A DNA stretch of 64,000 nucleotides, taken from contig CAWCLO010000001.1 in NCBI GenBank assembly GCA_963796455.1, positions 1,056,001 through 1,120,000 on the forward strand. The letters are read 5' to 3'. This stretch comes from Candidatus Sulfomarinibacteraceae bacterium (GTDB lineage Bacteria > Acidobacteriota > Thermoanaerobaculia > Thermoanaerobaculales > Sulfomarinibacteraceae). The notes under the pieces are model-generated. The model ran no database searches. It worked only from the letters and a program-made list of their open reading frames with translations, and was not told where the DNA came from. The translations under genes were made by a program, and so were the position numbers. Below are positions 20,650-37,813 of the stretch, piece by piece; within the stretch, counting starts at the first letter, position 1; each line of letters opens with the position of its first letter.

Positions 20650-20802
20650 GAGTCGACTCGCCCGTTTCAGGGCCACGGCAAACAAGAGACCACATCTCAA
20701 TTACACGATCCGAGATGGGAAAACGGCTTTTTGAAATCAGAATTGTTGCGTCTGAGTGGTAATTTTTTCTCCAGCTGAAGGTTTTTCAAGATAGGATTGG
20801 GT

Positions 20803-23800
20803 GTGCACCCCAGTCAGCCGACACGGGCTTCGCTCCAGGAAGGGTGGGTCATCGCCAACCATATCCTGGTGTCCTTTCACGTTGCCTTTATCTCTTCCGT
20901 GCTTGCTCTCCCGGCAGAAGCAATTCTCAAAGCCGATGTCCTGCGTTTTATCTTCCTCAGCTGGGAAACACTGGTCTCGGCCTTGTTCATGGGGATCACA
21001 TTTCATTGTGGAATCGCCATCCATGAACTCGGGCACTTTCTCGCCGCCGCTCGACTCAATGCACTCAACGAATCAGTTGCCGCTGACGCCAACGAACATC
21101 TCCACCGTCCGTTTTTCGGTCGTCTGGTTTTTTTGGCCGGGATGTTTCTCCGTATCCCCTACGGCACCGCACCAGGTGTCAAACGGGAAGGCCTGAACTA
21201 CTACCCAGATGCGCCCTACAATCTGGCCGTCGCCGCCGCCGGGCCACGAGCGAGCCGCAACCTGGCCGTCGCGGCCCTGCTGCCCGCCGCTGTATTGCTC
21301 ACCCTCGGTCTCTTCCTCGACACCGACCCGGCCATCTATGCCGGCCGGCTGCTCCTCGGTATCGGGTTGGTGGCCTTTCTGGATTTTCGATTCGCGGACC
21401 CCGGGAAATACGCCGAATTCCGCACCCGGGAAGCCCTCGCGAACGAACGAGCGGCCACCGTCGGGGAGGTCAAGGGCTGGCTTCTTCTTTGTCCGGAACA
21501 AAAGAACCGGATGATCGAGGAACGCATCCAGGAAGCGATCCACCCGCGGCTCGGACCGGTGACGGCGCCCTGGCAATTCCGCAATTGTGGAATGGGTGGC
21601 CGCCACACCGAAAAAGAATATCCCGAGTCCAACATCAGCATGCAGGAGGCCATGTTTCTGATTCTGAATGCACGGGACTACCAGGATGCGCAAGAGTTGA
21701 CGGTCCGGCTGCAAAACCGCCTCAAGGAAATCATCGAAAAGGAAGAGGGCTGTCGGGTCATGGGAATCGGCCTCGAAGGGGGGCTCGCACCATACATCGA
21801 CAAGGGCGACTATCAGCTTCCTGAACTTCGTCTGTGGGCGATGATGAAACAGGCCATCGCCGAGTGCGGTTGCCGGCCGGGAATCGACGTTGCGATCGCT
21901 CTGGACCCGGCGCTGAGCGAACTCGAGATCGCCTATCGCCAGGAATTCGACATGCCCGACAGTGTCGGGATGTATCTCTTCTGGCGCGACAAGGCCAAGC
22001 TCATCCTCGATCGAAATGCTGTGCTCGAGATCTACGCTACGGCGATCGAAGATCTCGAGATCCCCGTCCTGTCCATCGAGGACGGCTTTTCCGAGGACGA
22101 TCACGAGGGTTGGCGGCTGCTACTCGAACGCCTCGGCAAACACATCTTTGTCATCGGGGACGACCTCGTGACGACCAATGATTCGACGATCGAAGACGCC
22201 GCCGATCGCGGGCTGATCAACGCCGCCCTCATCAAAGCAAATCAGATCGGTTCGTTGTACGAGACTCTGCTCGCCATGATGGTGGCATTGGGCAAGGGCC
22301 AGGATCTCGTGGTATCCCACCGCTCCAAAAGCCCGAATGACGACATGGAGGCGCAGATCGCGCTGGCGGTCAATGCGCTCGGACTCAAGGCCGGAGGTGG
22401 CGCCAACACCGAACGACTCGTCAAATACCAGGCGGTCACCGAGCAGATGCTCAAGGTGGCGGACTCGGGTGGCGAAACCGCGCTGCACCCTGGTGAGAAA
22501 GCTGTTGTCCGTACCCTGCGAGCCTACGAGGAATCCACCAACGCGGGCATCCCGACGGTCGGCGTCACGCTCGAACTGGCTGTCCCCTCGGCCGGTGTGC
22601 GGCTCCAATTCAGAGGTGCGACACCGCTCGGAACATCCGCTGGGACCGGCGAGGCGATCCATCTGGTCGACGCCCTCATCGAACAGGCCGAACACCGGGA
22701 GATCATCGATCGCTTCGGCGGCTTCTTCGAGCAACGGGAAAGGGGCGTTTTCACCTTTGGCAAGGAAGTGTCGGAAGCTGAAATTCGATCCGCCCAGGAC
22801 GAAGGGCTGACGCATCTTTTCGAACGAGCGCAACGATATGGTGGGAAGGGCTGCCTCAACGCGGTCGACAACGTTGTGCAGATCATCGCGCCCCAGTTCA
22901 CCGGACGCGACATTGCCGGCCTCGGACTCAGGGAAATCGACGCCTCGCTGCTCGGTCTCGAACTCTTGACCGCCCGGCGGCGCGGAAAAATCGACTCTGG
23001 AGACGATTCGGAAAACCCCATCCAGGTCATGCAGCGCAAACAGAATCTCGGCATGAACGCGATGTTGTCGGTTTCGCTGGCGCTTTCTCGTGCGGTCGCC
23101 CACATCCAGGGTAAAGAACTCTACGAACTCTTGCGCGAAGAAATGATGCGAATCATCGAAGACCTGGCCCGATCGTATGAGGTGGAGGTCCGCGGCAGCC
23201 GTTTTTCCGATTATGTGACGGCCTTGCGCGAGGTCACCGGGATCCTCGAAGGACAGGGACAACCCGTGTTCGAGGTCCTCCGGAGTCGTACAGCGATCTA
23301 CTCATTGGCTGAAGAGTTCTCGAAAGGAACGCAAATTGTCGGGACCGGTTCCGGCGGTGATCCGATCCTGGAGGGAGAGCACAAAAGGACGAAGGCTGAC
23401 GATCCGCCACCCGTTCCCGAACCCGTTCCCGGGCCCGCCGCCCGCGGCATCGAGACCTCCCTGCCCAAAAACTTCACACCCCTGGACCGCGACACGATCA
23501 CCGATCTGAGCCGAGCCCTCCATCGAGCATTTGCGGTGACCGACGACCGAAGCGACGCTTCAAACACCCTCCGTTCCTACCTGGAGACCAAGACCGCCGC
23601 CGCGAGCAGGCTGGGCCGCTTCGGTATCGTCAACAACCGCGTATTCACCCACGACGGCACCCTTCTGGCGCCTTTTCTCGTCGGCGAGACCCTGGTACTG
23701 CAATCCGTCAACGACGACTCCAACCGAACCCTTGCGGTACGTCGTTTTCCCGCCGGCACCATTTATACGGACCAGGTGTTCATGGAGATCGCCGATTTTG

Positions 23801-26800
23801 ACGGCCGCGCGATCGACGTCGAACAGGCTCTCTTCTTCTTCGATGCCGAACATGTGACGGCGCCGCGGATCACCCGCATTCGCGACATCGCCTCACTGCT
23901 CAAGGAGGTCAACGAGGCCACCAATCGCAACCAGGCGCTCTTCCTCTTGAGACACCTGGTGGCGAGGCTCTGCAATCTCTCGGTCAAAACCTTTCTCGGC
24001 GCAAAGAATCTGCAGCCCGAGGTCAACGAACTCAACAGCCAATTGATACAGTTCATCAACGGCAGATTGTGCACGCGTCTCGCCGGTCTGTCTCGAACCA
24101 TCGTCCGCAACCTCTCGAGCGTCATCGGCAAACCGAATCTGATCGATCAACTGTGGAACGACACCATCCGCCTGGCTGAGGTGGAGATTCGGGGCAGCGC
24201 GATCGTCAACGAACTGCGGAGAAGCAGCCACCACGCGCTCGGGAAACGAACCCTCGTGCTCGCCGAGGCCTACCTCCGCTTTCTCGATACCGGCGAGATG
24301 GGTCAGTTGAATCGCCTCGGTTTCGATCATCCGGCGGCGAGCGATCTCGAGGCCAGAGAGAAACAGAAGCCGCGCGATATCGTCGAACGCGTGGTCGAGG
24401 ACCTTGGGCGGCTTCTCGGAACCTCCGAAACGGTGGCCAGAATCCAGGAATGGCAGCGATCCTACAAGGAGATCCTACTCCAGTGCCAATTCGGCAATCA
24501 GATCGAGACCGAACTCGAAACGATGATTGCCAAGGGCATTCGGGCCCGCAACCGGTGGGTGTATTTCCACCACCTGAGGATTCTCAACCAGAAAGCAGCG
24601 GACTTTTCGCGACCGGAGGCGGTGACTAAGGAATTCACCGCCCGCCTCGAGCGACTCCGCACCATGCGACCCGACGAAGCGGATTTCGACGCCGACCTGT
24701 GCGAAGCCGAGGCCCGCGAGGCCGTGGAGATCTTCACCACCGGAATCCGCGCCGCCTACCAGAACGAGCTCTTCCAGATGCTCGACGCGGTGATCGAGGC
24801 CAACGAAAAGAGCTCCCCCTACGAGACCTTCACGATGGTCCGGAGTCTGCGAATACGTTTGCAGACCATGATCCGAAACGGTGGGTTCCCATCGCAACGC
24901 TACTTCCTGCACCAACTCGATTGTCTGCTCGAGGAGATGAGCTACCTCGCCGTGAGACAGATCGCCACGGCCTATTCGGAAAAGGGGGTCGATCTCGAGC
25001 AGTGCCTGGAGATCATCCGCGTTTCGATTCTCAACCTCGAGTTTGACGGACTGGCCTCGCGTGAGTTGCACGATCTCTCGGGTCTGCTCGGCCACCCGAA
25101 TCGGAGCGACGGCGAGCTCCTCGATGTACTCAGACACGTCAGCCGCCACTACCACAAGATCCGCCAACGGGTGACCAATCCCTACGAACACATGAGTCAC
25201 CATCTCGCCCTCGACGAGGAAGACCTGCGCACCGTTCTGGCCAATATGCAGCGCTATATGCACGACCTCAACAGCGTGGTCCAATTCGCGGACATCGCCG
25301 GCGCACATATCCGGGACCAACAGACCCGAAACAAAGAAAACGGCAGCGCGCACGGCAGCGACGCTGATCTCCAATCGGTCCACGACATCATCCACATCTC
25401 GCACAAAGACCAGGTCGTCGCCGAAATGGATATCTGCTGCGAGCGGCCGAACTTGCGGGAGCGTTATGGCGGTAAGGGCAGCAGCCTGCTCTACGTCACC
25501 CAACTCAATCTTCCGACTCGGGACGGTTTCATCCTCCCAACCACAATCCCGCGCGCAGGCCTCCATCGTGGTGATACCACCTGGTTGGAAGGAGAAATCA
25601 CCAAACACCTGAAAATCCTCGAAACAGACCTTGCCGGCCAAAACGGGATCATCAAACGATTCGGCGACGAGAAGGAACCGCTGGTACTGGCGATTCGAGG
25701 CGGTTCGGTCTTCTCGATGCCCGGTATGCTCTCGACAATCGTCTTTGTCGGGATGAACGACCCCATCGCAGCGGCCCTGGCCCAGCACGGTCCATGGCGC
25801 GCCTATGATTCGTATCGCCGCTTTCTCGCCTCCTTCGGCCTGGCTTTCTGGGGCGTCGACCTCGAGACCTACAACCTGGTTGATGATGCCAAAAAGCGCC
25901 ATGGGGTCGAGTACAAAACTGATCTTTCGTGGGAAGCGATGAAAGAAATCGCCGAACGGTCAAAAACGGTGTTCAGAGATCACGGTCTATCGGGCGAACT
26001 GGACCGCATCCTGAAAGACCCGAGGCAGCAGCTGCTCGCTGCCGTGTGCGCGGTCTTTGAGTCCTGGAACAAGGAGAGAGCCCAGCGATATCGGGAGATC
26101 AAGGGCATCTCGCACTCGTGGCAGACCGCGGCCATCGTGCAGGAGATGGCTTTTGGCAACGGCCGCAACGCAGCGATCGAGGCGCCGATGGATGAAACCT
26201 TGGTGTCCCTCACGGGCGTCATTCCACGCACCACCGTCACCGAGTTCGGTCTGCGGGAGCTGTCGGGTGAATTCAAATTCTCGGCCGCCGGAGACGATCT
26301 CGTCGGCGGTGTTACATCCTCCGAGTCCTTCCATTCCATCGATGAACTCGACTCCTTGATGCCGATGCTCGGGCGCCGGCTTCGCCACGTCTCCTCGCGG
26401 CTCAGGCGATCGATGGGCACCGATCAGGAGGTCGAGTTCACCGTCGAAAACGGAGTTCTGAGCGTTCTCCAATCAAGGACCGCGGAAACCTATGCCGACC
26501 AGGCAATCGATCGTTTTGTTGAGCCCGGCGAGGCCGTCACCAGGGGACTCGGTGTACGCGGCGGTGGTTTCCGGGGGCTGGTCGCCTTCGATGATGCCGA
26601 TCGTGAAGAACTCGCGGCGATCGATTTCTCTCGCCGCGACGATGTCGACGGGGTGCTCCTCGTGTTGGAGAACCCCACTCCGGAGGAGATCCCGATGATC
26701 ATCTCCGCCGATGGGCTGCTGACCGCAAAGGGTGGATCCACCTCGCACGCCGCAGTCGCCGCCAACGGGATTGAGGACCGGAATTTCTGTTCGGTCATGA

Positions 26801-26979
26801 GCGCCGGCGGTCTTCGCGTCGACCTCGAAAAGCGTGAAGCCGTCATCCAGAACGCCGACGGAGAGATCCTCCACCGGATCCTCAAGGGTGATGTGCTCTC
26901 GCTGCACGGCACCTCGGGTGAGGTCTACATCGGTTCTCGCGCCCTCCGCCAGGTCGACGGCAAGGAACCGCAATCGTGA
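20803..26979 (+). CDS. Giant fusion: M50-like membrane domain + circularly permuted enolase + unknown region + PPDK ATP-grasp and phospho-His domains
   Basis: HELGH and AAAGP; enolase barrel motifs precede enolase N-domain motifs; PPDK motifs GGKG, SMPGM, AYDSYRRF, VQEMAFGN, GGSTSHAAV. Start GTG 20803 (ORF track 20797). Confidence 0.88.
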   Translation: MHPSQPTRASLQEGWVIANHILVSFHVAFISSVLALPAEAILKADVLRFIFLSWETLVSALFMGITFHCGIAIHELGHFLAAARLNALNESVAADANEHLHRPFFGRLVFLAGMFLRIPYGTAPGVKREGLNYYPDAPYNLAVAAAGPRASRNLAVAALLPAAVLLTLGLFLDTDPAIYAGRLLLGIGLVAFLDFRFADPGKYAEFRTREALANERAATVGEVKGWLLLCPEQKNRMIEERIQEAIHPRLGPVTAPWQFRNCGMGGRHTEKEYPESNISMQEAMFLILNARDYQDAQELTVRLQNRLKEIIEKEEGCRVMGIGLEGGLAPYIDKGDYQLPELRLWAMMKQAIAECGCRPGIDVAIALDPALSELEIAYRQEFDMPDSVGMYLFWRDKAKLILDRNAVLEIYATAIEDLEIPVLSIEDGFSEDDHEGWRLLLERLGKHIFVIGDDLVTTNDSTIEDAADRGLINAALIKANQIGSLYETLLAMMVALGKGQDLVVSHRSKSPNDDMEAQIALAVNALGLKAGGGANTERLVKYQAVTEQMLKVADSGGETALHPGEKAVVRTLRAYEESTNAGIPTVGVTLELAVPSAGVRLQFRGATPLGTSAGTGEAIHLVDALIEQAEHREIIDRFGGFFEQRERGVFTFGKEVSEAEIRSAQDEGLTHLFERAQRYGGKGCLNAVDNVVQIIAPQFTGRDIAGLGLREIDASLLGLELLTARRRGKIDSGDDSENPIQVMQRKQNLGMNAMLSVSLALSRAVAHIQGKELYELLREEMMRIIEDLARSYEVEVRGSRFSDYVTALREVTGILEGQGQPVFEVLRSRTAIYSLAEEFSKGTQIVGTGSGGDPILEGEHKRTKADDPPPVPEPVPGPAARGIETSLPKNFTPLDRDTITDLSRALHRAFAVTDDRSDASNTLRSYLETKTAAASRLGRFGIVNNRVFTHDGTLLAPFLVGETLVLQSVNDDSNRTLAVRRFPAGTIYTDQVFMEIADFDGRAIDVEQALFFFDAEHVTAPRITRIRDIASLLKEVNEATNRNQALFLLRHLVARLCNLSVKTFLGAKNLQPEVNELNSQLIQFINGRLCTRLAGLSRTIVRNLSSVIGKPNLIDQLWNDTIRLAEVEIRGSAIVNELRRSSHHALGKRTLVLAEAYLRFLDTGEMGQLNRLGFDHPAASDLEAREKQKPRDIVERVVEDLGRLLGTSETVARIQEWQRSYKEILLQCQFGNQIETELETMIAKGIRARNRWVYFHHLRILNQKAADFSRPEAVTKEFTARLERLRTMRPDEADFDADLCEAEAREAVEIFTTGIRAAYQNELFQMLDAVIEANEKSSPYETFTMVRSLRIRLQTMIRNGGFPSQRYFLHQLDCLLEEMSYLAVRQIATAYSEKGVDLEQCLEIIRVSILNLEFDGLASRELHDLSGLLGHPNRSDGELLDVLRHVSRHYHKIRQRVTNPYEHMSHHLALDEEDLRTVLANMQRYMHDLNSVVQFADIAGAHIRDQQTRNKENGSAHGSDADLQSVHDIIHISHKDQVVAEMDICCERPNLRERYGGKGSSLLYVTQLNLPTRDGFILPTTIPRAGLHRGDTTWLEGEITKHLKILETDLAGQNGIIKRFGDEKEPLVLAIRGGSVFSMPGMLSTIVFVGMNDPIAAALAQHGPWRAYDSYRRFLASFGLAFWGVDLETYNLVDDAKKRHGVEYKTDLSWEAMKEIAERSKTVFRDHGLSGELDRILKDPRQQLLAAVCAVFESWNKERAQRYREIKGISHSWQTAAIVQEMAFGNGRNAAIEAPMDETLVSLTGVIPRTTVTEFGLRELSGEFKFSAAGDDLVGGVTSSESFHSIDELDSLMPMLGRRLRHVSSRLRRSMGTDQEVEFTVENGVLSVLQSRTAETYADQAIDRFVEPGEAVTRGLGVRGGGFRGLVAFDDADREELAAIDFSRRDDVDGVLLVLENPTPEEIPMIISADGLLTAKGGSTSHAAVAANGIEDRNFCSVMSAGGLRVDLEKREAVIQNADGEILHRILKGDVLSLHGTSGEVYIGSRALRQVDGKEPQS

Positions 26980-27231
26980 GGCTTCTTTTCGCGACGCCGC
27001 AACCCTGACGGGCCGGGGACGATAAGAAAGTTCACCCGCCCGGTCACCCTGTCTCCGTCGGCGCCGCATGGCCGGTGCGACGACTTCTTGGAGATCCACT
27101 CAGGGTTCCGGGAATCGGGTCACGTCGAGATCGAGCTTGAGATGATTCATCGATTCGAGGCTTGCGTCCACGAGATCGCGATCCCGGTGCGGATTCGATC
27201 GCCGTTTCACCCAACTGAACTGATCTTCCCC

Positions 27232-27290
27232 GCTCCCCCTCTCCCTTTCTCCCTTTCTCCCTTTCTCCCTTTCTCCCTTTCTCCCTTTTT
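27232..27290 (+). repeat. Octamer pyrimidine tandem repeat (TTCTCCCT)n, about 6 units
   Basis: Directly visible, just downstream of the alpha-2-macroglobulin stop. Confidence 0.92.
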
Positions 27291-27297
27291 GGGAGTA

Positions 27298-30200
27298 TCA
27301 GTCGCCTTCGACCTGCAGTCGATGACCCGCCGAATAGGCCGTGAACTCGGGCGCATACATCGACTGTAGAACCGCCGGACCGACCCGGAATGCTCCGGCC
27401 ATGTTCGCGCGCAGGCGGTATTTGAAGGTGTACTCACCCGCCGGCAACCACTCAAAGAAGAAGTTGGTGCCGGAATCGCGGACCTCTTCGTACCAGGAGA
27501 TCCCGAGATCCCACTTGTACTGCGATCGCAATGTCTCGGGCTCGAATCCAGCGCCCCGCGGGTCGCGAAGATGGACATACTCGGCGGCGTGTTTGGCGCG
27601 GATCGACAGGTGGACCTCGATCTGGTCGCCCGGGTTGATTTTCTCGCCATCTTTCATAGGCCGAAGCACCCATCCCGAGCCGTCGTTGAAGCGTCGGAAG
27701 TAGGCCCGTTCGACCGCAAAAAGATCTCCCCGGGCCTCATCGGGCAGCCGCTCGGTGGAAAAGTGCCACGTGGCCGAAGCAAAGGCAAAGCCCTTGAGGG
27801 TTTTTCCACGACGATGGTGGACATGGTCTCCGGGTCCACGGCTTCGCCCTCGACAATCACCCGGTTGCGGGCTCCGGTGTAGCTATCCGGCTCGAAGACA
27901 AATCGTGTGGTCCGGGGCCCCATCGACACGCGAGATCTCCTCGCGCACCTCGAGGGTCTCTTCGTGGCGCAGATAGTGGGCCAGGGAATAGAGCACTTCG
28001 GCGGTGGCGCGGGTCGACTTCCAGTGGTTGAGTTTTTTGTTGAGCAGCAACCACTGGACCAGACCGTGGCGGCGGCCGTCGTCCGGCTCGAGCTCGGTCA
28101 ATGTCCGCAGAGCAAAAGCGTGGGTCTCGGTGGTGTCGTTGTACCAGAGCCAGGCGCGGTCCTCGGGCGCCCAATAGGTGCCGAGATCCTCATCGGTCTT
28201 TGCCGAATCCATCACCGAATCGAAGACCAGAACCGCCTCGTCGTGGCGCCCCATCCGCTCGAGGGTCAGCGCCAGATAGCTCTTGGTCAATGGTGAGTGC
28301 GCCTTCCAGTGGCGGAAGCTGAAATCGAGCATCCGCTTGCGGTCGTCGGCGGTGAACACTCCGCCCGTCCACGACTCGTCGGGGTAGTTGGAGAGCGTGT
28401 AGTTCAGAAACGTGATCGTTTCCCAGCAGCAATTGTGAGCCATCATCTGCTCGACCCAATAGTCGAGATAATGGCGGTGCATATACGCCCAGGCCCGCAC
28501 CACGACATCCTTCGGCGTCTCGACGCCAAACTCGAGGCCCTTGGAAAAACCGTGCAGGATGTAAAGCGTCATCCAAGGTGACGGAGGTCCGCCGGGCCAC
28601 CACGGAAAGCCGCCGAGTGAGGTCTGGCTCTTTTTCAACTTGGCAAGAGCCGCCTCGCGTTGGGCGCGGGTCACCGTCGGATCGAGGACGTTGACGAGGT
28701 GGTCGGAATCCTCCGCGCCACCGCGAGACATCTGCAGCCACGGCGTCTCGACCAACTCCATAGCGCGGTTGGGATCGTCGGCTTCCCATTGTTCAAATCG
28801 GCTCTCACGCTGCGACAGCTTTGCGGCCATCCGCTCTACCGATGGGTACCTATCAAAGAGGCTCGACACGATCCCGGTCGAAAGAAAACGGTTGAGGGTC
28901 TGTTCGGTGCACTCGTAGGGGTAATCCACCAGATAGGGCAGGGCATTGAGAACCGAGTAGAAGAGCTGGGCATCGATGGTGACCGCAAGTTGCCCGTGGA
29001 TCAGAGACGGGTCGTCATCCGATGCCATATCGGCAAAATGGAGCTCCCGGCGATCCGCATCGTGGAGCGTAGCGAAACGTGATTGCATGAGGTGAAGACG
29101 ACCCGGCAGTACCGGTAACGGTCGGAGCTCGCCGTCGGAGAAGTCACCGGCGCGAGCAATGACCTTGAAGGCCACAGTACCGACCCGGGCGGGGACCTCG
29201 AGTTCGAAACTCAGATCAGTACCCTTGCCGGCTTCGACCTCAAAGGGCAGACCCGAGGTGTCCTCGGCCGAAAGACCGAAGAGTGATCGCAGATCCTCCT
29301 CGGTATCGGGATCGTAGATCGAGAGGTTGAGCGCACCCGACAGTGTCTGCTCTCCGGCGTTGTTGACCACGACCTTGAGCAGAGCACGATCGCCCTCGCG
29401 GAGGAAGCGGGGCAGGTAGGGGCGAACCATGAGCTCCTTGACGCTCGCCGCCTGGCGGGTGACCGAACCACCTTTGAGATCGGTGGTCAGGGCGTGAACC
29501 CAGAGATTCCACTCTGTGACCGAGTCCGGAACATCGAACTCGACAGTCGCCGATCCGTCGTCGTTGAGGAGGAGGTGGGGCTCCCAGAAAGCGGTCTCCG
29601 AGAAATCGGACCGGAGTTCGACGGCAGCATTGGGCGGATCGGTGCCACCGGCTGCGCTCCGGTCGGCGTCAGCCAGGTTCCGGCTTGTCTCGCCTTCCCG
29701 CTTGAATTCCGCGCTCTCCTCGGCCGCCATCGGGGCGGCCATCGCCATGGCCGCGGAATCCATCCTCGATTCCATGACCATGCCCGCCTTCATCTGCCGG
29801 AATCCACCACGCCGACCGGGCCCGCCGATGCCGTACCCGTCCAGACTCATGAGCGCATCACCATGAAGGTGGGGGAAGCCCGGTGGATTGGGCAGTCCTG
29901 ATGTGCCCCAGGCGCGCGGCGCCTGGCCGAGGTTGTCCCATAAACGAGCGATCCCGGAGCGGTTCGGATAAAGCGCCGTCACCGACGGCGGCGAATGTGG
30001 GGCAAAGATATCGAGGCTGCGGTCATACATATAGGCCAGCAATTCGGCGGCGGCGGTGTCGACAGCGGACCCATCATGACGCCGCACCGTGACCGTGAAG
30101 GTTTCGCGGGTACCGGGCCGCATCCGGTCTCGGAAGGTCGCGAAATCGAGCTCCAACCGGCGGTCATCCCAGGGCACGAAAAGCTGGGCCGTCTGGCGTA

Positions 30201-33200
30201 CCAATTGGTGGTCCCTGACAAGGGTCAGGGCAACCCCAAAACCGCCACGATCAGACGCGGTGATGGGAATCTCGATCACACCCGACTGGCCGGCTCCGAT
30301 GGGACGTCTCTCGGTGCGGCGTCCGTCGCGGAAGATCTCGAGCATCATTTCCTGCTTGCGGAAGCCGGTGAAATACAGGAGCCGGGCGGTCTCCCCGACC
30401 GCAGCAGAGCCCCGGTCGAAGCGAAGCAGAGCGGGCAGCGACAGCGGGGTCCGTTTCCGACCGGTCACGACGAGGTGTTCCCGGGTTTCAAAGGCAGCAC
30501 CGAAGTCGTCCTCGGTGGAGTAGACCAATCGATAGGCGCCGGCGGTCAGCCCTGGGAGGTCGACCGAACCCGCACCGTCTTCTCCGTGCGCTACGTGTCC
30601 GGAAGCAATCTCCTCGCCGTCCGACCACCCGGCCAAGACACTCTCCGGATCGTAGCGATGTTCCCAACGGGAGCGGAGCTCGTCTCCCGGGTGTCCGGAG
30701 GCCGGGGTGGCCGCCCGGAACCAAGGGTAAGGGTTGATCAGCCGGGGTCAGGGTCTCCGACGGCTGATCCAGACGGAGCAATCGCCACGAACCGGTGCCC
30801 GCGCGGGGTGTTCCATCGAGGTCGGTACGGAGTACCCGGACAGTCGAGTCTTCCTTTGCCGCCCGAAAACCGAGGTCATCAATTATCCGCGCCTCGACAG
30901 CGACAAAACCGAGGCGGAAAACGCGCTCCGCCGATCGGGTCTCGCCACCCTCATCTGTGACATCCACACCGAGTCGGTAACGATATGTCACGCCCTGCCC
31001 GGCCTCGCGTTCGTCGGCTTCAGGGATGAACTGGACACGGAATCGGCCCTCGTCGTCGAGCCCCGATTCTCCCGCCGCCACCACCTGCCGTTGGCCGGAT
31101 GCTCTCGGATACCACCAGGACCACCAGCGCGGATAGACGGGCTCCCGAGTCACACTCCACTTCACATCACCGCTGACAACCGGGAGTCCGAAGTAGTAGC
31201 TCACCTCTCCTGTGAGCTCCGCCTCTCGATTGAGCCGCAGGGATACTTCGGGTTCGGAGATCTCCACCGAGAAGGTCGGCCTTTTGTATTCTTCGACCCG
31301 AAACCAGTTCTGTCCGCCAAAAGAAGTGCGAAGCCACCACCGACCGAGAAGGCGGCCGGCGGGAATCGTGAAACTGCCGCTGGCAGAACCAAAGGTGTTG
31401 GTGGACAGGGAGGTCGACCCGACCTCCTCACCGTTCGCATCCACGAGCGAAACCGTGATGTCGGTCTTTGGCACGGTTTCATATTCGATTGCTTCGCCGC
31501 CACCGCGGTAAGCGACAACCTTCCAGAAGATCTCCTGCTGCGGGCGGTAAGCCGAGCGGTCGGTATAGATCATTGCCGAGGAGCTCACTCCACGCGAGCC
31601 TTCGTGGCTCAGGTGAAGCCGAGTGGTGTCCAGGGCCAGATCGGCGTGGCGTTTTGCAAACACGAAATACTGTTCCCGTTGCCAGCGGGCGTGTTTGAAG
31701 GTCACCCGGCCGTCATCACCGCTACGTTGTCGTTCCATCTCGCGGTGACCCTTGCGGTAGTCATATCGATAGAGCGAAATATCCGCCCCTTCGAGTGCCC
31801 GGCCGCTCGCTCCGGATCGCGCCGTCACTTCGTAGCCGCCGGGAATCGTCCGGGTCACCAAGACCAGATCGGAAAGAATGAAGTTGTCGGCAACTCGAAG
31901 ATTGCCGGCCTCCTCGAAGTCCGCCCGCATCGATGCCACCACCAGATAGGCCCCGGCCTGATCGAGATCGGGCACCGAGAAGGTGTTGTGGGAGCGGAAA
32001 TCCGGTGTCGCGGGCAGATCGGTCGACCACTCGGAAACCGGATCGTTCCCCTCCATGATCTTCTCGGCTTCGCGATGATCGGGCAGCAGCGAATAGTCCT
32101 TCGAGGACCGGATGAACTTCTCGATATCGTGACGATAGGCGCGGAAATAGATCTTCTTGAAGTTGCGGTGTTCGATCCGGATCGACCGCCTGCCTGCACC
32201 ATCCGTCGCCATCATCGCCATCGAATAGGTGGGGGCCTCGATTACGGCCGCGTGGTGGGCACAGCGGCGCCCGCCGATGGATTCGGGGTGACGGTCGCGA
32301 CCCTTGATCGCGATATCACGGGCACGCACCAGGGCGTCGCTCTCCGCTTCAGTCTGCACGAACTCGGCCAGGACAGCCTGACCCATGGACCACCACCCGA
32401 GGCTGTTGTCGAAGGCCTGCTGCACCGATTCCAGATTCCGCCGGACCGCCAACTTGTCTTGGGTGCTGGGCAGAGCGGTGTGAAGCCGTCGCAGGCGCTC
32501 GAGTCGCGCCTCCAAAGCGGATTCGGGGCGACTGGAGTCTTCGTGCCAGGCCTCGAGATCGTCGAGCAGGGCGCCGACCTTGATCAGAGGATGTACATCC
32601 GAATCACCGAGATCGGCCTCGGCCGACCCGTTCGCCTGGCCTTCGATCAGCGCCTGTACCGGAAGCCTGAAGACTTCATTGGACTCGGCTGGGCTCCACA
32701 ACGACGAGTCAGACAGGAGTTCCGCCCACAAATAGGTAACTGCGTCGCGGAGGGTTCCGCGAATGCGCGGCGGAAAGTTGTTCTGCGCGATATACCGGGA
32801 GAGTTCTCCGAGGCTTTCACTCCCCCACTCGCCGCGCTTCGTCCAAAGCTCGAGAAACGCGCGATCGGATTCGGCCACGATCTGCTCGAGGTCCCACTTC
32901 TTGAGGTCCAACTCATCCGTGGTTTCGACCCGTTCGCGCTGGCGGATTTCCCACGAGTAGACCCTTGCGTAGGTGGCCAGGGCCTTGGCGTAGTAGAGCT
33001 CCAAAACCGCCTGGGAGACCGCGTCCTCGGGCCAGGGCTGCTCTTTGAGATAGCGCACCGCAGTCTCGTAGCCGTGCAGGGCCATCCGCAGCTTGGTTTC
33101 TTCGACCAGGGCGCGAGTCCACGTCTCGGAGTCATCCGCCTTACGGGCACGTACCAGAATTCCATCCACCGCCTTCGAGGCGGCCTCGAACTTCTGCTCC

Positions 33201-33394
33201 GAGATCAGTTGATCAACATCTTTCCAGTTCAAGGGTTCTCCTGCAGCGATGGTAACTCCTTCGTCCGGATCGGCACCATCTGCGCCGGGATCACCGCTCA
33301 ACGCCTGCAGCGCCGCCGCCGACACCAGCACCACGAGAAGGGTGGTCAGGAGAACAATCGAACGCGAACTGGACGAAAATCGTGTTTTTCGCAT
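27298..33394 (-). pseudogene. Bacterial alpha-2-macroglobulin, broken by three 1-nt indels (pseudogene or assembly errors)
   Basis: YTDRSAYRP, FRVEEYKRP, LRSDFSETAFW, thioester YPYECTEQ, SMYAPEF across ORFs 30488-33394, 27883-30636, 27654-27929 and 27298-27669. Confidence 0.88.
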
Positions 33395-35649: not shown

Positions 35650-36753
35650 CTACTGATTTGCCGGCACCGCCCACTCCTTGATTTGGTTCTCGTCAAGAGA
35701 ATTATCGCGGCTCCAGCGGGCCGCTCCCGCGATCACCGGTTCGTCGGCGGAGGCCAGGACCTCCAATGCCTCGACAGCCCGAGAACTTTCTTCGGGGGTT
35801 CCGAGGTCCTTGGCCATATTGAGGCCGAGGATCGCCTCGAGGCGGAAGCGCCGGTCGGGAGCATTCCGGGCAGTGTCGATCACAGTATCGAGCCGGCCCG
35901 GCTGCATTTTGAAATCAATTTCGCCGTCGTCATCCAACCGCATGGACTGCATGAGATCGGTGGAGGTCAATCGCTGCTTTGTACCGAGGCGTTGAGCGGG
36001 AACCTCACCGAGAACCACAGACGCGAGCAGGGCCAGCTCGAGGTCGCCGTCAGCCAATGCCCTTTCATAAACCGCCCTTGTGCCGAGATGGATGCACGCA
36101 AGACCGACCAGATCGGAGATGATCACAGTGTCTTCCTGACGAAGCAGACGACCAAGGCGGATGGCGCGGCGGAAGTCCCCCATCGCAATCTCGGCATTGT
36201 CTGCAGCAACCCCTCGCGCGATCCAGGACCTCACGAGTTTGATAGCGAACAAGAGATTGGTGATGCGCGTGCTGTAGCCCTCGAGTTCGAAAACGTCGGG
36301 ATAAAAGGACATGGTTGCCTGATCCACCCATGGTTCAGCTTCGAGCAGCAACGGATCGTCCGGTGGGAGAACCGTGCCTAACCATTCGGGGCCCTCGATT
36401 CCTCTCTTCGCGGCATCAAGAGCTTCTTCCGAACGTGGACCGATCTCTTTGGCAAAAAGCCCGAACCACTCCGCCGCGTTGGCGGTGCCGGACCCGAGTG
36501 GCGCCAGAAGGTCGAGGTCGGTCTGGAAACGCAGCGGCCAGTCGTTGGCAGACGGGCAGCTCCAACACGGCACCTCGAGATCTACAATCACCAGCGCCTC
36601 GGGCTCCGCCACAAACGCAGATGGTGCAGTAATCGTCGGCGCAGGCCGTCCGCGCGAAATCAGGCGCGCCCCAAGCGAGCCCGCAAGCACGATGATCAGT
36701 GCGGTGGCCAGGATCACCGGGATCATCTTCGATTTTGTTATCGGTGTGGTCAT
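35650..36753 (-). CDS. Membrane-anchored hypothetical protein (CWSC motif)
   Basis: N-terminal TM helix; start overlaps the upstream anti-sigma stop. Confidence 0.8.
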   Translation of the reverse strand: MTTPITKSKMIPVILATALIIVLAGSLGARLISRGRPAPTITAPSAFVAEPEALVIVDLEVPCWSCPSANDWPLRFQTDLDLLAPLGSGTANAAEWFGLFAKEIGPRSEEALDAAKRGIEGPEWLGTVLPPDDPLLLEAEPWVDQATMSFYPDVFELEGYSTRITNLLFAIKLVRSWIARGVAADNAEIAMGDFRRAIRLGRLLRQEDTVIISDLVGLACIHLGTRAVYERALADGDLELALLASVVLGEVPAQRLGTKQRLTSTDLMQSMRLDDDGEIDFKMQPGRLDTVIDTARNAPDRRFRLEAILGLNMAKDLGTPEESSRAVEALEVLASADEPVIAGAARWSRDNSLDENQIKEWAVPANQ

Positions 36754-37157
36754 AAGACTTCTCCTTGAACCTCGAGATCGGTCGGGTCTTCAAAACTCGC
36801 AAAGAGCCCGACGATCGGTTGCACGTTGTCGACTATCCGGATGGGGCGGAGGAACTCGACGGCGGGTTCAGCGATCTGGTTCTCAGCCTCTCTCGCCACA
36901 TCGGGTCTCGGGCCGAATCCTTCGCCCGCGAAGGACACCACGAAATGGCCTGCGAGGAGGAACGCCACACTTGCCGCCCACGCCAACCGGACGCCACGCT
37001 GCCCCCAGATCGTCCTCCACAGGTCCACGGGCTCTTCCGTTGTCACCGCGTCACGAGCCGCGCCGAGGACTCGTGAGCGCAGATCGGTCGGCGTCGGCGG
37101 CGGCTCGACGCCTTCGAAGAGGCGCTCCAACACTGGATCTCGTTCATTCGTCGTCAT
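36750..37157 (-). CDS. Putative transmembrane anti-sigma factor
   Basis: Directly downstream of the ECF sigma; PPP.P.DLRSRVL followed by WAASVAFLL TM segment. Confidence 0.65.
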   Translation of the reverse strand: MTTNERDPVLERLFEGVEPPPTPTDLRSRVLGAARDAVTTEEPVDLWRTIWGQRGVRLAWAASVAFLLAGHFVVSFAGEGFGPRPDVAREAENQIAEPAVEFLRPIRIVDNVQPIVGLFASFEDPTDLEVQGEVL

Positions 37158-37737
37158 CGGATCTCTCCATGAGGTTTTTGAGCTTTTGAATGCCGCTACG
37201 GTAGCGGCTGGCGGCGGTGAATTTCGGCACGGAGAGTATCTCGCCGATCTCCTCATAAGTGCATCCGGCGAAATTCCTCAAATAGATGACCTCACGGTGC
37301 GCATCCGTGAGACCGGACAGAAGAACAGAAACCTGGGCCGCATCCACCATCCGCTGGCTGTCGCCTTCGGCAGCAGTCAAAAAAGGGTACTGTTCCACGG
37401 GCTCGGCAAAATGACGGCGGCGGCGACGGGACACGTCGATGGCCCTGCGGTGGGTCACGGTCATCAACCAGCCTTTTGGGTTCTTGATCTTTGCCAATCG
37501 CGGTCCCTGTTCCACGACCTTGACGAAGACATCCTGCACGACGTCGGCGGCATCTTCTTCCGAACCGGTGCGCCACAAGGCGAGGCCATAGAGCTTTTGT
37601 GCCGCTTTGTCGTAAAGCGTGTCAAGCGACGCAAGGCGACCGGCAGCGAGTTCCGCAAAGAGACCCCGCCAATCATCCCGTGGCGGGTGGACCGGGGATT
37701 TTACCTCGGTCAATCTGGTCGGCGGTAGGTCGGTCAC
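37144..37737 (-). CDS. ECF sigma factor
   Basis: DAADVVQDVFV, GWLMTVTHRRAID, REVIYLR....TYEEIGEIL. Start uncertain (37737 or 37782). Confidence 0.92.
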   Translation of the reverse strand: MTDLPPTRLTEVKSPVHPPRDDWRGLFAELAAGRLASLDTLYDKAAQKLYGLALWRTGSEEDAADVVQDVFVKVVEQGPRLAKIKNPKGWLMTVTHRRAIDVSRRRRRHFAEPVEQYPFLTAAEGDSQRMVDAAQVSVLLSGLTDAHREVIYLRNFAGCTYEEIGEILSVPKFTAASRYRSGIQKLKNLMERSDDDE

Positions 37738-37813
37738 GGCTTCCACAATAGTCGAGACGAACGAGCATCGCTTTTTTGTCACTCTCGACCCGACCGTTTG
37801 TTAGGATGAGCCC

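Follow-up and report, generated by a model that had tools for sequence, protein, structure and literature searches.

A widespread bacterial fusion of an M50-like membrane domain, a circularly permuted enolase and a barrel-less dikinase, found in a Candidatus Sulfomarinibacteraceae genome

Introduction

Several described systems move phosphate on a swivelling histidine to acceptors other than pyruvate. In alpha-glucan water dikinase (GWD), a central domain with a U-shaped 20-helix fold forms the docking site of the histidine domain, and R904 has been suggested as a catalytic residue (PMC13553574). A pyruvate phosphate dikinase (PPDK) without its barrel has precedent in VadK, which autophosphorylates and acts as a regulator (bioRxiv 10.1101/2025.10.30.685616). 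Among membrane proteases, the M50 site-2 proteases are defined by an NxxPxxxxDG motif, which M50B-like members lack (PMC5249076). In this study, we describe a gene that joins an enolase with modules related, or in the case of GWD likely related, to these systems, located in a 64,000-nucleotide stretch of DNA (the window; positions 1,056,001 to 1,120,000 of contig CAWCLO010000001.1, assembly GCA_963796455.1) from a Candidatus Sulfomarinibacteraceae bacterium. The architecture is real, widespread and apparently uncharacterised, and is assembled from known parts. Our preferred reading, to which we give a probability of roughly 0.4, is that this membrane-domain protein with four motif-complete modules acts as a carbon-status regulator.

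Architecture and authenticity of the fusion

A single open reading frame (ORF) without internal stop codons begins on the forward strand at 20797 or 20803 and ends at 26979 (Table 1). The GTG at 20803, with AGGA six bases upstream, is the start called in the protein database (P0001) and is likelier than the TTG at 20797; it gives 2058 amino acids (aa), whereas the 2060 aa of the original prediction, which had been made from the letters and ORFs alone and gave 20803 as its first position, are reached only from the TTG. Residue numbers below are counted from the GTG, and Pfam and PDB ranges from the TTG, i.e., two higher. ORF analysis, Pfam and PDB alignment bear out the predicted M50-like membrane domain, permuted enolase, PPDK nucleotide-binding domain and swivel domain, as well as the positions given for HELGH (21022-21036), GGKG (25468), LQSR (26467-26478) and the swivel histidine. 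With Pfam and NCBIfam, a weak M50 match is followed by the enolase barrel (Enolase_C, 263-569, E 5e-46), the enolase N-domain (Enolase_N, E 4e-12, best stretch 746-779), PPDK_N (E 1e-14) and the mobile histidine domain (PEP-utilizers, E 5e-8). No domain claim here draws on protein-fold prediction, and statements at the level of folds come from sequence profiles.

Homologues were identified by scoring 7999 candidates, among which 417 proteins matched; homologue counts below refer to the 119 best non-self matches. All six anchor residues, distributed across five domains, are kept in 117 of these 119 at ~55-75% identity. Pattern matching in GTDB genomes gave 325 candidates, of which 279 were confirmed, and the 79 loci analysed from these span Acidobacteriota, Planctomycetota, deltaproteobacteria, Myxococcota, Gammaproteobacteria, Gemmatimonadota, Chloroflexota and other groups, the nearest named ones being Thermoanaerobaculia/Sulfomarinibacter-like. 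Whole single-ORF fusions account for 51 loci, two of them on chromosome-length records, and three more are incomplete only on the 5′ side, where their contig ends; in 18, a contig end falls too early for the architecture to be assessed, three are broken inside domains, and one (L033) consists of two neighbouring genes with a clean split at the linker. The remaining loci comprise two stand-alone membrane-plus-enolase genes and one tandem double of that unit. Misassembly, named at the outset as a possible undoing of the prediction, is excluded because independent homologues show the same domain order. The spread is patchy, with 7/24 genomes of the own genus, 0/16 of a sister family and 1/300 drawn from the phylum carrying the gene.

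Read support for the junctions is partial: near-identical short read contigs, from runs that may not be independent, cross the membrane/enolase, middle/grasp and grasp/histidine junctions, and no single read-derived contig (all are short) spans the whole gene. No RNA dataset is listed with the gene. As the original prediction supposed, literature searches found no description of a protein with this architecture, nor of a permuted enolase, and a mention in a genome paper, a supplement or a subscription paper is possible.

Membrane, enolase and dikinase modules

Residue conservation upholds the predicted motif-complete enolase and dikinase sites: the enolase positions, the PPDK nucleotide site, His1982, HExxH, D194 and D199 are overall invariant or conservatively replaced. 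In the enolase, the circular permutation is evident from PDB alignment, where enolase residues ~159-418 align with profile positions 268-546, and residues 3-136 with positions 561-770. The barrel and N-domain carry the positions of the catalytic acid and base and of the metal and phosphate ligands; the 17 positions checked are invariant across the 117-119 homologues that have a residue there. No region of the protein is more conserved than the barrel (mean identity to the query 80%, minimum 75%, 118 homologues). The canonical N-then-C order is absent, and the TIGR01060 score of 203 bits lies below the cut-off of 300.

The membrane domain has hydropathy peaks at 16-42, 49-67, 150-174 and 177-195, with HExxH (H74, E75, H78) inside a hydrophobic segment. 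HExxH, D194 and D199 are kept in 117/117 homologues, and H20, H26 and H68 are three further invariant histidines. Peptidase_M50 is matched at E ≤ 0.1 in 38 of 52 family members (best 2e-7). ESM Atlas matches name M50 (0.92), weakly, since their recognition of 2277 lies under the 2300 mark. Judged by its motifs, the domain looks like an M50 zinc site and is a putative protease.

In the dikinase half, the ATP-grasp residues of Table 1 and H1982 are present in 119/119 homologues, the position of PPDK D321 is Glu in 117/119, and that of PPDK E279 is Asp in 108/119. PPDK residues are numbered on the PDB alignment, and the role of Lys22 is taken from PMC4844700. The ATP-grasp belongs to the PPDK type (E 2e-77 with TIGR01828, compared with 1e-6 for PEP synthase), and its TIGR01828 score of 261 bits lies below the cut-off of 843; PRK05878 scores 183 against 456, which places the protein outside the VadK-type two-domain group. 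Alignment with solved C. symbiosum-type PPDK covers PPDK residues 14-347 and 387-510, after which the ORF ends. Neither Pfam nor the PDB alignment detects a C-terminal pyruvate/phosphoenolpyruvate (PEP) barrel, and the longest tail past the histidine domain is 31 aa among the 119 homologues, in agreement with the barrel loss originally noted.

The middle domain and its link to glucan water dikinase

The roughly 700 aa in which no motif had been recognised at first contain an invariant polar cluster (N1069, E1073, W1118, E1126, N1136-E1137, R1139-R1140, H1143-H1144, E1377-E1378, R1484 and D1488). No Pfam family was matched there at cut-off level; the most frequent, MbeD_MobD (24/62 sequences), was taken as coiled-coil noise, and the ESM Atlas gave no usable match. 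A resemblance to GWD was tested. Searched against 1.84 billion proteins, a middle-domain profile built from 62 sequences matched 97, and the 10 weakest of these matches comprise four short fragments and six long proteins. Five of the six long ones contain PPDK_N, and two, one of them named Omnitrophota, show GWD order together with GWD1_pHisD. A search seeded with one such protein led to proteins named alpha-glucan water dikinase, and a bacterial GWD from this search matches the crystal structure of the potato GWD central domain, 9HA9, at E 1e-78.

Profile-profile comparison connects the same steps, the middle domain scoring 95.7% (E 9e-9) against the Omnitrophota dikinase group and that group 96.7% (E 5e-10) against 120 bacterial GWDs, with the two alignments overlapping over ~85 columns. 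With iterated profiles, the 120 GWD central domains, which are mutually kin, reach a median of 7.8 bits, compared with -2.3 for reversed and -2.8 for shuffled sequences. The iterated alignment places H1143 on the histidine of the GWD "H-N" motif and the invariant R1484 on the arginine of GWD "EEIxRG", which we infer to be R904 from the 9HA9 match and the published E900, R904 and R923; at the E900 position the query has Ala. On profile evidence, the middle domain is likely homologous to the GWD central (acceptor) domain, a new link that runs through the Omnitrophota dikinases. Together, the transitive GWD link and the invariant polar cluster make it a likely acceptor domain in place of the pyruvate barrel. 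Pfam finds no GWD1_pHisD, no central-histidine-ATP-grasp order and no carbohydrate-binding module (none at E ≤ 1).

Two groups encountered in these searches deserve mention in their own right. P0231-P0350 belong to a large, apparently bacterial GWD family (1544 matches among 7921 candidates) that closely matches the plant GWD central domain (P0231 versus 9HA9), with named rows from Thermodesulfobacteriota, Nitrospirae and deltaproteobacteria. The word "bacteria" is absent from the 2026 StGWD1 paper (PMC13553574), and the accessible text of bioRxiv 10.64898/2026.09.25.754361 discusses GWD only in eukaryotes. The second group (P0208, P0212, P0213, P0216 and P0223-P0230) consists of large dikinases, several named Omnitrophota, that carry the central domain in both GWD and PPDK order and in some cases HEAT repeats or signal-peptide-like N-termini. 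A GlpX resemblance considered for the N-terminus of P0213 was unsupported by Pfam at E ≤ 0.5.

Modularity and genomic context

Table 1. Features of the fusion gene in the window (positions of the whole stretch)
Feature	Position	Strand	Details
Whole gene	20803..26979	+	2058 aa from GTG (2060 aa from TTG 20797)
M50-like membrane domain, aa 11-205	20833..21417	+	~4 hydrophobic segments, HExxH, N140-x6-GP, D194, D199
Enolase TIM barrel (normally C-terminal), aa 253-560	21559..22482	+	H268, E282, E325, D368, E426, D453, K478, H506-R507-S508, K529
Enolase N-terminal domain, placed after barrel, aa 570-780	22510..23142	+	Two family insertions; S612 at Mg-loop serine position
Variable Pro-rich linker, aa 834-884	23302..23454	+	Module boundary; in relatives, HD-domain insertion site and gene split site
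Middle domain, aa 885-1505	23455..25317	+	Core ~aa 1061-1500, likely GWD-central-like acceptor domain
PPDK-type ATP-grasp, aa 1550-1900	25450..26502	+	K1558, R1632, R1672, D1832, E1878, Q1890, R1892
Phospho-histidine swivel domain	26515..26946	+	His1982 at 26746; protein terminates here

The two halves of the protein also exist apart. The membrane domain lies 5′ of the permuted enolase in every complete case, including stand-alone genes of 847-848 aa, and this N-terminal half occurs alone in Dehalococcoidia. One stand-alone N-terminal half adjoins PEP carboxykinase, with pfk, class II aldolase and glpX within ~8 kb; a second lies ~5.6 kb from a normal eno, and a third has neither context. The C-terminal half occurs as a separate gene of 1155-1186 aa in two genomes, both of which also contain the fusion. 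An HD-type domain is inserted at the linker in 18/119 homologues, with the H and HD motifs and, in 17 of the 18, the D motif.

Around the gene in the window, the esterase-like, acyl-CoA ligase and molybdopterin protein neighbours recur in close relatives only. Other observations concern individual loci. A 1666-aa protein (L046:10100-15100) contains two near-identical membrane-plus-enolase copies, reflecting either a recent duplication or an assembly artefact, and a CYTH-CHAD gene directly follows a stand-alone C-terminal half (L100:8708-13706) in a single instance. In the window, an alpha-2-macroglobulin-like gene (27207-33394, reverse strand) extends across at least three overlapping ORFs, which suggests frameshifts or assembly errors; an ECF-sigma-like gene and a small membrane protein, both recognised by eye (36750-37782, reverse strand), lie ~10 kb away and outside the recurring neighbours.

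Proposed function and alternatives

The mechanism we propose comprises five steps. The ATP-grasp would very probably phosphorylate His1982, given the invariant site residues and the precedents of PPDK and VadK. The swivel domain would then probably bring the phosphate to a middle-domain cleft that replaces the pyruvate barrel, as the remote GWD homology and polar cluster suggest. Because no carbohydrate-binding module is present, the phosphate probably goes to a small hydroxylated metabolite and not to a glucan granule; the HD domain, where it occurs, would be a phosphohydrolase working in the opposite direction. The enolase is quite probably a competent metal-dependent dehydratase whose substrate is 2-phosphoglycerate (2-PG) or a closely similar compound. 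Other site-2 proteases are under the control of CBS or PDZ domains, and by analogy there is an even chance that ligand-driven closure of the enolase is passed to the membrane domain; the permutation puts both chain ends at the enolase interdomain junction, so closure could be transmitted in this way. The zinc site would, on a balance only slightly in favour, cleave a membrane substrate, and binding and turnover of 2-PG/PEP by the enolase would likely gate it.

In favour of the regulator we count the invariant enolase, dikinase and zinc-site residues, the normal enolase and PPDK that most carriers keep, the membrane domain preceding the permuted enolase in every complete case, the stand-alone copy beside PEP carboxykinase, the likely GWD kinship of the middle domain, the HD insertions and the VadK precedent. 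Support is stronger for the chemistry of the separate halves than for any coupling between them. The fullest version is a one-protein signalling machine, in which a live permuted enolase would switch an intramembrane zinc protease allosterically while the dikinase, with its optional HD phosphatase, would write a phospho-metabolite signal through an acceptor domain of the plant starch dikinase lineage; we regard it as doubtful.

Several results weigh against the regulator. The two halves need not be coupled, because they also occur as separate genes, and the originally envisaged coupling of 2-PG/PEP to histidine phosphotransfer is hypothetical. Control of proteolysis is likewise hypothetical: Peptidase_M50 (69-220, E 0.009) scores 20.1 bits, below the Pfam gathering score of 27.2, PDB comparison of the membrane domain matches no solved site-2 protease, DFxxADPG, which holds the invariant D194 and D199, replaces the canonical NxxPxxxxDG, and no substrate gene, sigma factor or other neighbour is conserved across the 79 loci, the largest neighbour cluster covering nine. 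The middle-domain profile alone matches no PDB chain, GWD included; its direct comparison with the GWD profile gives E 0.028, a non-significant value that the best of 15 shuffles also reached, and at library scale no GWD domain passes E 0.001 with iterated profiles (best 0.0046). Beside the enolase site, L324, K509, P511 and N535 are invariant family-specific changes that could mean another substrate. The complete conservation of the catalytic residues is just as compatible with a plain enzyme.

A rival reading, which we consider unlikely, is a membrane-tethered metabolic channel, in which the dikinase makes or consumes the substrate or product of the enolase and the membrane domain is an anchor; variants would convert glycerate to 2-PG, convert pyruvate to PEP with the helical domain as barrel, or run in reverse to form ATP from AMP and pyrophosphate. 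Enolase and PPDK are established as consecutive pathway steps, the grasp is of the PPDK type, and the halves are fused in 51/79 loci and adjacent when split (L033). However, the own genome holds a normal eno and ppdK, as had been left for checking, and among 50 of the 79 carrier loci, picked for longer contigs, enolase exceeds its family cut-off in 48 and PPDK in 40; bulk glycolysis therefore does not need the fusion protein, which is accessory. Moreover, anchoring has no need of an invariant HExxH-plus-Asp site, and four Dehalococcoidia genomes with the N-terminal half (completeness not given) show no middle-domain match.

We also see little likelihood in a bacterial glucan dikinase, whose C-terminal half would phosphorylate glycogen or another alpha-glucan while the enolase half reports glycolytic demand. 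According to the accessible text of PMC13553574, no chemistry other than glucan phosphorylation is known for this central-domain family, and five carriers tested contain glycogen genes (glycogen synthase family 5/5, GH57 5/5 with one weak, phosphorylase 3/5). Set against this are the lack of a CBM45 or Ig module by Pfam, the Ala at the GWD E900 position, differences in cleft motifs, and the distribution of PF02806 (the GH13 C-terminal domain, as in GlgB), which occurs in 0/8 own-genus carriers although 31/46 other carriers have it; no glycogen gene cluster is found among the recurring neighbours.

A VadK-like protein phosphorelay, in which His1982 passes phosphate to a middle-domain residue such as H1143 or H1144 or to a partner protein and no small molecule serves as acceptor, is distinctly improbable. 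The VadK precedent, the two invariant histidines in the helical domain and the optional HD domain would accommodate it, whereas VadK has no acceptor domain and, in the accessible text of its report, no demonstrated downstream phospho-acceptor, the acceptor served by the likely homologous GWD domain is a carbohydrate, and the 79 loci share no conserved partner gene. Finally, an assembly chimera or chance fusion has a negligible probability: metagenome-assembled genome titles on 79/79 records and the lack of a read contig across the gene would permit it, but the anchors retained in 117/119 homologues and the 51 fused loci, two of chromosome length, would not.

Whether or not it is a carbon-status regulator, the protein contains a naturally occurring, circularly permuted enolase that is very strongly constrained, and it adds a probable acceptor module of a new kind to the scaffold of swivelling-histidine dikinases. 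It also points to likely relatives, in prokaryotes, of the GWD central domain, for which the mode of glucan binding is described as unknown (PMC13553574). Thanks to the invariant residues, every step can be tested directly on soluble fragments. Should the coupling be real, glycolytic state would be wired to membrane proteolysis, of which no description was found in the literature searched, and the cell would likely sense the state of its sugar metabolism at the membrane.

Comparison with known systems

The membrane domain shares with the M50/M50B site-2 proteases (PF02163, PF13398) an HExxH ending a hydrophobic helix, an AGP motif and an invariant Asp after the last helix; it differs in having DFxxADPG for NxxPxxxxDG, three additional invariant histidines and an enolase where CBS or PDZ sits in those proteases. 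Relative to enolase (TIGR01060; PF00113 and PF03952), both domains and all tested catalytic and metal positions are retained, whereas the domain order is reversed and insertions, the membrane fusion and invariant loop changes near the site are added.

As in PPDK (TIGR01828; PDB 1KBL, 9PZL), the histidine swivel directly follows the ATP-grasp, and the equivalents of K22, R92, D280, E323, Q335, R337 and H455 are kept; unlike PPDK, the protein has no C-terminal pyruvate barrel, and an acceptor-like helical domain lies N-terminal instead. VadK and Rv1127c (PRK05878-type barrel-less PPDK) likewise combine ATP-grasp and histidine domain without a barrel and coexist with other PEP routes, but VadK consists of those two domains alone. 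Rifampin phosphotransferase (PMC4844700) also has a C-terminal histidine swivel and a non-barrel acceptor domain, although its acceptor domain is different and lies between grasp and histidine domain, and its grasp is PEPS-type. With GWD (StGWD1; PDB 9HA9, 9QVI; PMC13553574), the protein would share swivel transfer to a non-barrel acceptor domain, and it has a likely homologous helical central domain in which the cluster histidine and late arginine are aligned. The order here is central, ATP-grasp, histidine, compared with central, histidine, ATP-grasp in GWD, and a PPDK-type grasp, the lack of a GWD1_pHisD match and of a carbohydrate-binding module, and a purely transitive link further distinguish the two.

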